Shown one piece after another: positions 33,829 through 35,167 of a DNA stretch of 35,788 nt; within the stretch, counting starts at the first letter, position 1; the number at the start of each line of letters is the position of its first letter. A model generated the notes under the pieces. The model saw nothing but the letters and a program-made list of their open reading frames with translations, did not search any database and was not told where the DNA came from. Source of the DNA: an uncultured Bacillota bacterium (GTDB taxonomy: Bacteria; Bacillota_I; Bacilli_A; RF39; UBA660); NCBI GenBank assembly GCA_947179265.1, contig CAMXBB010000001.1:1-35788 (forward strand), written 5' to 3'. Position numbers and translations under genes: made by a program.

Positions 33829-34227
33829 ATGATGAGTAAAAGTGATTTAGAAGCCATTGAAAAAATTATTATACGATTACTTGAATTAAAAATTGTCACA
33901 AGTAATCATGATGAAAAGTTCTTTTATGATAATTTAGAAATGAATATCCTAATTGATTATATCGAAGAAATATCATCATGTCTTAGATTGATAAGTGAAT
34001 CAATTAAGAATAAATATACTAATGTTTCGTGGGATGTTATTGATAAAGAAAGAGATTATGATGAATTTTTAGACATGAGTAGCATGAATGTTGGTAAAGC
34101 ATGTAAGCTTGCCTATAGCATTTATGATACTTTATATGATGACTTGATGATGATATTATCAGCGAATATTGATGATTATAATCATGAATTATGTGAAAAA
34201 CGTCGTAATGAATTGAAAGGAGATTAA
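33829..34227 (+). CDS. DUF86/HepT-like HEPN-domain protein with a degenerate Rx4H motif (132 aa)
   Basis: SD AGGAGTG. KNKYTNVSWDVIDKERDYDEF aligns residue-for-residue with the DUF86 signature ypeipW-x6-RN-x3-H. W-x6-R is kept, but the His position is Phe. Confidence 0.6.
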   Translation: MMSKSDLEAIEKIIIRLLELKIVTSNHDEKFFYDNLEMNILIDYIEEISSCLRLISESIKNKYTNVSWDVIDKERDYDEFLDMSSMNVGKACKLAYSIYDTLYDDLMMILSANIDDYNHELCEKRRNELKGD

Positions 34228-34229
34228 CT

Positions 34230-34637
34230 ATGAAGGATTTGATGAAAACCAATTGCTATGATATTGAAGATGCTATGATTATTGTTGGAAGTTGTTTCCC
34301 AAGAATGCAACCCTTTGCTTATGAAGAATTAAAGAAGATTTCTGATAATATCTATGATGTTTGCTTAGAGAGTACGCATCTTAATATGGCGATTACCAAA
34401 ATAGTTGGAATGTTATGTAGAGTTAATGTTAGAAAATTAATATTTGCATCTGTTGATAAATCACCACATTGCGTTCAATTACATTATATTGAAAGTGAGA
34501 TAAGAAAAGCTATGGCTTTGAAAGATTTGGAGATTACTCATTATGTTGCTGTTGATAATAAGTTGATTAGCATTGATGAAAAGACGATAAAGATGTCTAA
34601 GTCATTGAGTGAGCTTCAAAGTAATATAGAAATATAG
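34230..34637 (+). CDS. Hypothetical protein (135 aa), middle gene of the operon
   Basis: Strong SD AAGGAG 7 nt upstream, 2 nt after the upstream stop. No secure family assignment. Confidence 0.6.
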   Translation: MKDLMKTNCYDIEDAMIIVGSCFPRMQPFAYEELKKISDNIYDVCLESTHLNMAITKIVGMLCRVNVRKLIFASVDKSPHCVQLHYIESEIRKAMALKDLEITHYVAVDNKLISIDEKTIKMSKSLSELQSNIEI

Positions 34638-34645
34638 GTGAATAT

Positions 34646-35167
34646 ATGAAATGTAGTGTTAAGTATAATGAAGGAATCGATGAATTTACTGAGGATTTGT
34701 CCTTAGAGATGCGTTTAAAAAGATATATTAAAGATAAATTTTATCCAGCTTATGTAATAGCTCATTTGGCCCCAGTATATTTAGTTGGAGGTTCAATTAG
34801 AGATCTAATGATGGCTAAAGCACCGAAAGACTTAGATTTTATTGTAGTTGGTAATGAGCATAAGGAATGGGTCTTAAAAGTTTTAGAAAGATTTGGCATT
34901 ACTTATTCCTTTAACCGTTTTGGTGGGATGAAATTTACTTATAATGATACCTCTATTGATTTATGGACTGCAGATGATCTATTTTCATCGATGCAATATA
35001 ATGTTGATGGATTATATTATGATTTATCTGCAGATAGATTACTATCATTAACTTTTGCTGATTTTGTACATAAAGGTTTACGAGAGGTTAATCCCGATAA
35101 CAATATTGACGTTGGTAGAGAAAAAAAACTGCAAATGTTTGAAGAAACATTTAAAAAACAAGATTAA
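34646..35167 (+). CDS. Minimal pol-beta superfamily nucleotidyltransferase, CCA-adding/poly(A) polymerase head-domain type (173 aa)
   Basis: VYLVGGSIRDLMMAKAPKDLDFIV matches the GGxxRD-x8-12-DxD motif of PF01743-type enzymes. A third carboxylate strand is SIDLW. The neck-like LREVNP is present, but there is no body/tail domain. Confidence 0.7.
   Translation: MKCSVKYNEGIDEFTEDLSLEMRLKRYIKDKFYPAYVIAHLAPVYLVGGSIRDLMMAKAPKDLDFIVVGNEHKEWVLKVLERFGITYSFNRFGGMKFTYNDTSIDLWTADDLFSSMQYNVDGLYYDLSADRLLSLTFADFVHKGLREVNPDNNIDVGREKKLQMFEETFKKQD

Follow-up and report, generated by a model that had tools for sequence, protein, structure and literature searches.

Genes for HEPN-like proteins and for nucleotidyltransferases (NTases) form a famously recurrent pair, and the kanamycin nucleotidyltransferase ANT(4')-Ia carries a helical, HEPN-like C-terminal domain; the HI0073/HI0074-type gene pairs are a comparable case. 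The HepT/MntA (MNT) type VII toxin-antitoxin systems are built from such a pair. Here we analyzed a 35,788-nt stretch of DNA from an uncultured Bacillota bacterium (the window), in which three small genes lie close together near the contig end (genes 1, 2 and 3; Table 1). A reading of the letters alone (the sequence-only reading) had taken the three genes for one previously uncharacterized HEPN/NTase conflict or RNA-modification system. We found that gene 3 encodes an intact, minimal class II NTase (CCA/poly(A)-polymerase type), that gene 1 is only remotely similar to HepT, and that the three genes are not conserved together, so that the claim of a single system does not hold.

Relatives of gene 3 were sought in one genome per GTDB species, and we found about 41 species bearing it, all of them uncultured gut Bacilli, 'Tenericutes' or Erysipelotrichaceae-type metagenome-assembled genomes. 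With hidden Markov model (HMM) searches, we found no relative of gene 1 or gene 2 within 5 kb of gene 3 in these ~41 species loci and six further metagenomic contexts, outside the syntenic closest relative described below. Comparison of every flanking open reading frame (ORF) of the gene 3 loci with the gene 1 and HepT profiles (hhalign) gave no match either. Gene 3 is solitary or within unrelated operons in loci L001-L009, L013-L019 and L024-L065, and clustering the ORFs around its relatives yielded no recurrent partner, only antisense ORF artefacts and lineage-restricted synteny. Truncated or fragmentary homologues occur at about position 5001 of L037, L056, L058, L059, L060, L064 and L065, as expected of an accessory gene that genomes can dispense with and at times lose.

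Synteny between the window and its closest relative (L010-L012) extends over tgt, L19, the signal peptidase, GNAT and two further genes. In L010, a gene 1 homologue (46% identity) lies directly 5' of a gene 3 homologue (69% identity) with a gap of 7 nt, and the gene 2 homologue (77% identity) is 2.3 kb downstream, past four small ORFs and an ASCH gene. The third gene that the sequence-only reading saw interposed lies between genes 1 and 3 in the window but not in its closest relative. Three other gene 1 homologues were examined, all on short contigs. Two of them (L104, L106 and L107) have no gene 3 downstream; a convergent L17 gene comes next in one case and an unrelated 66-aa ORF in the other. 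The third, in L105, is followed only by a terminator-like hairpin and T-run, and the contig ends 45 nt past its stop. The triad is a lineage-specific juxtaposition, and the adjacency of genes 1 and 3 recurs solely within one syntenic clade. Lack of co-conservation was one of the outcomes that the sequence-only reading had itself named as refuting it.

All three proteins were scanned against Pfam, NCBIfam, PHROGs and PADLOC, and the matches were informative for gene 3 alone. Gene 3 matches PF01743 over residues 44-106 (E = 1.9e-6, 28.6 bits, cut-off 23) and the tRNA nucleotidyltransferase family phrog_2244 (E = 3.9e-9), and it carries the motif YLVGGSIRDLMMAKAPKDLDF. Corroborating these matches, the 29 best Foldseek matches to its AlphaFold2 (AF2) model (predicted local distance difference test score, pLDDT, 81) are all class II enzymes (best E = 4.8e-5), led by the CCA- and A-adding enzymes and poly(A) polymerase 4wby, 5hc9, 1vfg and 3aql (E = 5e-5 to 1e-4). 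The small-molecule NTases ANT(2'')-Ia and LnuA come in a second tier (E about 4e-3 to 6.5e-3, TM-score 0.37-0.43), and the MenT/AbiEii-type structure 8an5_B is a weak match (E = 1.8e-2). We found no Pfam match to the MNT families (PF01909) or to resistance NTases and no NCBIfam resistance-NTase match, and alignment with four verified MNT proteins gave a probability of 0.2% (hhalign). These results bear out the assignment of gene 3 to the CCA/poly(A)-polymerase class rather than to the MNT class. Gene 3 works like the class II NTase superfamily and, by the Pfam threshold, belongs to it.

An exact look-up of the gene 3 protein by its window coordinates found no entry, and a word-indexed protein search returned 87 relatives of gene 3, nearly all of 170-177 aa and 40-76% identical. 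In an alignment of 29 sequences, 24 columns are invariant and both termini are conserved; the invariant residues include G48, R52, D62, D64, D105, N119, D121, G122, N152, N153 and R158. Motif A (GGxxRD...DxD) and the third carboxylate are thus covered, with G48, G49, R52, D62, D64 and D105 invariant or nearly so. Full-length relatives were absent from the phage collections and IMG/VR, where matches to phage tRNA nucleotidyltransferases went no further than motif A.

We aligned gene 3 with full-length class II enzymes drawn from the genome scan and found that motif A and the third carboxylate are kept, that a segment of about 19 residues after the third carboxylate is deleted, that RRD of motif B has become FSS or SSM, and that EDxxR of motif D (DDPLR) has become NNIxxGR. 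The protein has neither body nor tail and ends at residue 173, where the neck begins. Because the flexible loop, RRD, EDxxR and the tRNA-measuring body and tail are lost, the gene 3 protein cannot be a CCA-adding enzyme in the proper sense. The match is confined to the N-terminal head of PF01743, and the NCBIfam cca and pcnB models match at motif A only, with 13-25 bits against cut-offs of 290-700, as would be expected of a decayed fragment of the housekeeping cca gene. Decay is ruled out by the conservation of length and residues across relatives: the 87 full-length relatives share conserved N and C termini, and the length stays constant across many genomic contexts. We regard the fragment explanation as scarcely credible. 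Gene 3 thus encodes a minimal class II NTase that is genuine and intact and that is distinct from both the MNTs and the true CCA-adding enzymes.

In one locus (L033:5001-6080), the gene 3 homologue reads through, giving an ORF of 359 aa whose additional C-terminal part, of about 190 residues, contains a Cys-rich stretch. A gene fusion may account for this ORF, as may an artefact of assembly or of stop loss.

Gene 1 is far more remote from described families. Neither gene 1 nor any of 15 members of its family matched a Pfam model, PF01934 included, at E <= 10, and sequence and profile searches of the PDB gave nothing meaningful. An exhaustive HMMER scan of 1.84 billion representative proteins returned 21 relatives only, and a metagenome scan with a narrower gene 1 alignment found none. 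The AF2 model (pLDDT 92.4) is a helical bundle with a small hairpin. Its best Foldseek match in the PDB has E = 1.4, and nothing was significant in the PDB or BFVD, with generic bundles at E > 0.2; the HEPN toxin 7ae6/7ae8 is among the matches (E about 2.1, TM-score 0.35-0.41).

For a direct comparison, we took four MNT-HepT pairs from plasmids, whose HepT proteins were confirmed against PF01934 (best E = 1.3e-33). The gene 1 family aligns with the four HepT proteins at 87-93% probability and a score of 39-44 over about 80 columns (hhalign). In comparison, 400 column shuffles had a mean score of 10 (standard deviation 1.9, maximum 18.8), and the reversed alignment and three unrelated families scored 10-16. 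The aligned region includes a K-Y-x-x-[VI]-x-W stretch, and K60, Y63 and W68 are the only invariant residues of the gene 1 family. At the level of sequence profiles, the remote similarity of gene 1 to HepT appears real. To speak of a DUF86/HepT signature, as the sequence-only reading did, nevertheless claims too much: it survives as a remote profile match, and it gains no support from Pfam, PDB profiles or Foldseek.

The residues that make HepT a toxin and a substrate are gone. The gene 1 family has K, R, M or S at the HepT Arg column and D, E or N at the His column, in agreement with the reported loss of the catalytic His; at the column of the AMPylated Tyr, gene 1 has F80 and other members have V, I, G or K. 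Gene 1 very probably encodes a catalytically dead HepT-like protein. Because the Rx4-6H site and the AMPylated Tyr are lost, it could serve neither as a toxic RNase nor as a canonical substrate of MNT. The family alignment begins with MNKK, and the true start of gene 1 may be the second ATG, at 33832.

These residues bear directly on the idea that the locus is an unusual toxin-antitoxin or anti-phage system of the HepT/MNT kind, with the HEPN protein or RNA as the target that the NTase would modify. An NTase and a HEPN-like gene do share one operon here, and gene 3 turns up in variable contexts, often close to a tRNA gene, as accessory genes commonly do. However, the gene 1 family has neither the Rx4-6H motif nor the AMPylation Tyr, the NTase is not of the MNT class, and the gene order (HEPN-like gene first, as the sequence-only reading had noted) is the reverse of that in the four verified pairs, where the NTase comes first. 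The locus also lies within core genes at native GC content, gene 1 and gene 3 have no match in PADLOC-DB 2.0, and the solitary occurrence of gene 3 cannot be squared with a toxin dependent on an antidote. The partners are not co-conserved, which largely refutes this explanation, and we consider it very improbable. The locus does not belong in catalogues of HEPN/NTase conflict systems and is a negative result for defense-system discovery.

In the variable region of L010, downstream of the gene 1-gene 3 pair, a 108-aa ORF (L010:6691-7017) gives the best match to an HMM of the four HepT proteins, though a weak one (E = 0.06), and a faint Pfam match to HisKin-conflict. This ORF may represent a further HEPN-like gene in decay.

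Gene 2 falls in a separate family, which is far larger and independently distributed. A protein identical to gene 2 (P0089) and nearly all of its listed relatives carry a precomputed PF27217.1 annotation, and the family has more than 1110 relatives, with 63-80% identity among those examined. Its invariant residues are C22, C45, H50, H80, C81, H85 and H104. We found no PDB or NCBIfam match for gene 2, and its best score in PADLOC-DB 2.0 (14.5 bits, E = 0.0074) covers only 26 residues and was not counted as a match. In L020 and L021-L023, the family occurs in housekeeping neighborhoods without gene 1 or gene 3. Informative database names were found for none of the three proteins, and we found nothing in the literature on AF_0155, on PF01743 together with HEPN, or on truncated CCA-adding head domains for these families.

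The gene 2 family adjoins an ASCH-domain gene in two distinct contexts (L010:7099-8229 and L020:4554-5399), and the ASCH gene may be its real functional partner.

Since the acceptor of gene 3 would determine its role, its surroundings are of interest. We found a co-oriented tRNA gene at most 700 nt upstream of the gene 3 relative in 9 of 41 species loci. In comparison, 9 of 251 other genes in the gene 3 loci have such a tRNA (Fisher p = 1.7e-4), as do 4 of 275 in control loci. These tRNAs include at least seven identities. The tRNA-adjoining loci are L007-L009, L025, L033, L034, L038, L039, L040, L048, L049 and L065, with the homologue at about position 5001 in most. Downstream of gene 3, we found no att-like repeats of the tRNA 3' end (a test for integrative elements), and an Rfam search of the DNA 5' of the gene 3 relatives, which looked for a conserved leader RNA or a riboswitch, returned only tRNAs.

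Two kinds of coupling add to this picture. A HAD_SAK_2 protein (PF18143, 'Swiss Army Knife RNA repair', E = 1e-17) is translationally coupled to the gene 3 homologue in one case (L039:4464-4997), and a YqeY-like gene (PF09424) precedes the homologue in three distant relatives (L063:2566-3000; L061 and L062). These couplings may hint at an RNA or tRNA function for gene 3.

Between the tRNA and gene 3, a stretch of about 160 nt is conserved in two or three species (L025:4476-4700, L034:4363-4590 and L017:4607-4735). It holds two terminator-like hairpins and a called 42-aa ORF, and it could be a small ORF or a non-coding RNA; an Rfam scan of the stretch in L017, the single locus scanned, gave no match.

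Taking these results together, we favor, as the likelier account, that the three small genes of the locus are evolutionarily unrelated and lie side by side only in one lineage of uncultured low-GC gut Bacilli, with no dedicated three-component system, and that gene 3 is an autonomous, active NTase. Because gene 3 is solitary in nearly all other genomes, it would be the functional core and work alone. As a pol-beta NTase of class II cut down to its catalytic head, it is predicted to be active: GG...R...DxD and the third carboxylate would bind two metal ions and a nucleoside triphosphate, and the enzyme would transfer a nucleoside monophosphate onto a hydroxyl acceptor. The acceptor might be an RNA 3' end, probably that of a tRNA or a tRNA-like molecule, and, CCA addition being excluded, the enzyme would more likely extend it by one or a few nucleotides without a template, or depend on a partner that holds the substrate. 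On RNA as the acceptor we place somewhat less than even weight. Gene 1 would be at most an optional accessory of gene 3 in the window lineage, and gene 2 an independent PF27217 member that simply came to lie between them.

Some observations weigh against this account, beginning with the pair in the closest relative. A HepT-like gene and an NTase in one operon in two relatives that have diverged to 46% and 69% identity may be beyond chance, and the further contexts of gene 1 homologues number only three, all on short contigs. Genes 1 and 3 might then be a two-component module, in which the dead HepT-like protein serves as a substrate-binding or regulatory subunit of the class II NTase and gene 2 is a passenger. 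Such a module would parallel the HEPN-like domain of kanamycin nucleotidyltransferase or the HI0073/HI0074-type pairs, with another NTase class recruited. The remote HepT similarity of gene 1, its adjacency to gene 3 kept in diverged L010-L012 (there with a 7-nt gap), the tight coupling of all three window genes and the general recurrence of HEPN-NTase pairing all favor such a module. However, no gene 1-like or HepT-like neighbor accompanies gene 3 in the ~41 species and six further contexts, gene 1 relatives occur without gene 3, and gene 2 is able to sit between the two genes. Moreover, both loci that bear the pair are syntenic and hence not independent, and the adjacency could equally be inherited. 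We consider the module unlikely.

The remaining points against concern the acceptor. Each tRNA is set apart from gene 3 by a terminator and by a separate promoter, so the nearness of tRNA genes could stem from hot-spots of insertion instead of from function. Proteins of the gene 3 family are acidic (median isoelectric point 5.5), and we found no recognizable RNA-binding domain in them, which weakens the guess of an RNA acceptor. ANT(2'')-Ia and LnuA, the second-tier fold matches, act on small molecules, match gene 3 in size and, like it, stand alone. Gene 3 might thus act on an antibiotic, a metabolite or an envelope precursor; this alternative concerns the acceptor only and is compatible with a lineage-specific juxtaposition of the three genes. 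Some contexts fit it: the L004 relative lies with a methyltransferase, a PPDK_N/PEP-utiliser protein and an NTP_transferase, the L013 relative with a glycosyltransferase, and some relatives are near integrases and relaxases. However, class II RNA NTases account for every best match in sequence and in fold, the resistance-NTase models of NCBIfam and Pfam do not match, no neighbor recurs, and tRNA genes are enriched. We consider a small-molecule acceptor unlikely.

The enrichment of tRNA genes and the occasional HAD_SAK_2 and YqeY-like coupling also fit a more specific proposal, in which the gene 3 family would be an undescribed group of stand-alone minimal class II NTases of uncultured gut Bacilli for the repair, tagging or quality control of tRNA or other RNA 3' ends, with a dead HepT-like partner recruited in the window lineage. 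If that partnership were true, it would be an independent re-invention of the HEPN-NTase pairing with another NTase class and with no toxin function. We hold this proposal to be a long shot. The account of three unrelated genes with an autonomous gene 3 remains the one that we prefer.

In the window, the three ORFs described by the sequence-only reading are all present with their gaps of 2 nt (genes 1 and 2) and 8 nt (genes 2 and 3), and each start is preceded by a Shine-Dalgarno-like motif (AGGAG, AAGGAG and AGGTGA for genes 1, 2 and 3, respectively). The flanking terminators were also found, as a hairpin and T-run on either side (Table 1). By RNA folding, the upstream one has -9.3 kcal/mol (z = -3.95), which none of 200 shuffles equals, and the downstream one -8.8 kcal/mol (z = -1.83), equaled by 10 of 200 shuffles. 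A generic terminator scan demands at least three G-C pairs and missed both for that reason. As to the promoter that the locus was said to have of its own, a promoter-like site is indeed present; however, the region holds 30 such sites against 27.7 expected from shuffles, which is no enrichment in this AT-rich DNA. Because such sites occur at chance frequency here, the promoter is plausible but is not evidence. The spacing and flanking signals suggest that the locus is probably one transcription unit.

Table 1. Features of the three-gene locus in the window (positions count from the first nucleotide of the window).
Feature	Position	Strand	Length	Description
Gene 1	33829..34227	+	132 aa	Remote, probably catalytically dead HepT/DUF86-like (HEPN) helical-bundle protein
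Gene 2	34230..34637	+	135 aa	Uncharacterized family PF27217 (AF_0155)
Gene 3	34646..35167	+	173 aa	Minimal class II nucleotidyltransferase; head domain and neck stub
Intrinsic-terminator-like hairpin and T-run	33733..33760	+		10 bp stem, 4-nt loop; ends upstream 209-aa gene
Promoter-like TTGCTA-17-TATATT, TG before -10 hexamer	33761..33789	+		Consensus scan, 9/12 matches; candidate
Intrinsic-terminator-like hairpin and T-run	35212..35240	+		3' of gene 3

The upstream genes are housekeeping genes, as had been noted (rpoB, polC, ruvA, ruvB, queA, tgt, the signal peptidase and GNAT), and the contig ends 620 nt past gene 3. The GC content of the locus is 0.28-0.30, the same as that of its surroundings, with no compositional anomaly (the window is chromosomal and low-GC, about 26-37%).

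Elsewhere in the window, the PolC ORF (19898-25672) has 1924 aa with a predicted GTG start, about 480 aa more than a typical PolC, and the extra sequence sits between the exonuclease/PHP region and the alpha NTPase domain. Two ORFs have no Pfam match: one of 170 aa (26567-27079) wedged between ruvA and ruvB, and one of 402 aa (18287-19495) between rpoC and polC. A 236-aa membrane protein upstream of the locus (32274-32984) has a weak match, below the cut-off, to S_4TM, the SMODS-associating 4TM effector domain (E = 0.0025), which is probably a low-complexity or transmembrane artefact.

The value of the locus lies in an uncharacterized minimal NTase family and its association with tRNA genes rather than in a new conflict system. 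If active, the gene 3 family would be, to our knowledge, the smallest class II NTase, and it would reveal what the catalytic head is able to do once the tRNA-measuring body and tail are gone, in a group of gut bacteria that are uncultured and have reduced genomes. The non-random place of gene 3 beside tRNA genes offers a testable link to tRNA biology. Gene 1 calls for caution in two ways: a motif seen by eye held up as a remote profile similarity to HepT, and the residues that would make the protein a toxin or an MNT substrate are all gone.

Compared with known systems, the HepT/MntA type VII toxin-antitoxin systems likewise have a HepT-like helical protein and a pol-beta-fold NTase in one operon. 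However, the window locus departs from them in five of six testable features: gene 1 does not match PF01934, Rx4-6H and the AMPylated Tyr are missing, the NTase is of another class, and whereas the genes of the four control pairs overlap with the NTase first, the HEPN-like gene comes first here and the partners are apart in nearly all loci. A third gene is interposed as well. ANT(4')-Ia and the split pairs of NTase and HEPN-like protein also place a non-catalytic HEPN-like helical module beside a pol-beta NTase, a likeness of concept alone; in the window, the genes are separate, the NTase is of class II and the pairing is found in one lineage only.

Among small NTases, LnuA and ANT(2'')-Ia resemble gene 3 in size (about 160-177 aa), stand-alone habit and pol-beta core, whereas gene 3 has a CCA-type motif A, low TM-scores to both (0.37-0.43) and no match to their family models. 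The MenT/AbiEii toxins, likewise small NTases, modify tRNA 3' ends and match gene 3 weakly in structure (8an5_B); however, they form a different NTase family and always come with a cognate antitoxin, whereas gene 3 is usually alone and has no Pfam or PADLOC match to them. The class II CCA-, A- and CC-adding enzymes and PcnB, at about 370-470 aa, are far longer than the 173 aa of gene 3, which has no body or tail and only a neck stub, is acidic, and differs by the ~19-residue deletion after the third carboxylate and by the changes of RRD to F/S-S-S/M and of EDxxR to NNIxxGR. Motif A, the third carboxylate and the head fold are common to gene 3 and these enzymes, and gene 3 retains recognizable remnants of class II motifs B, C and D.

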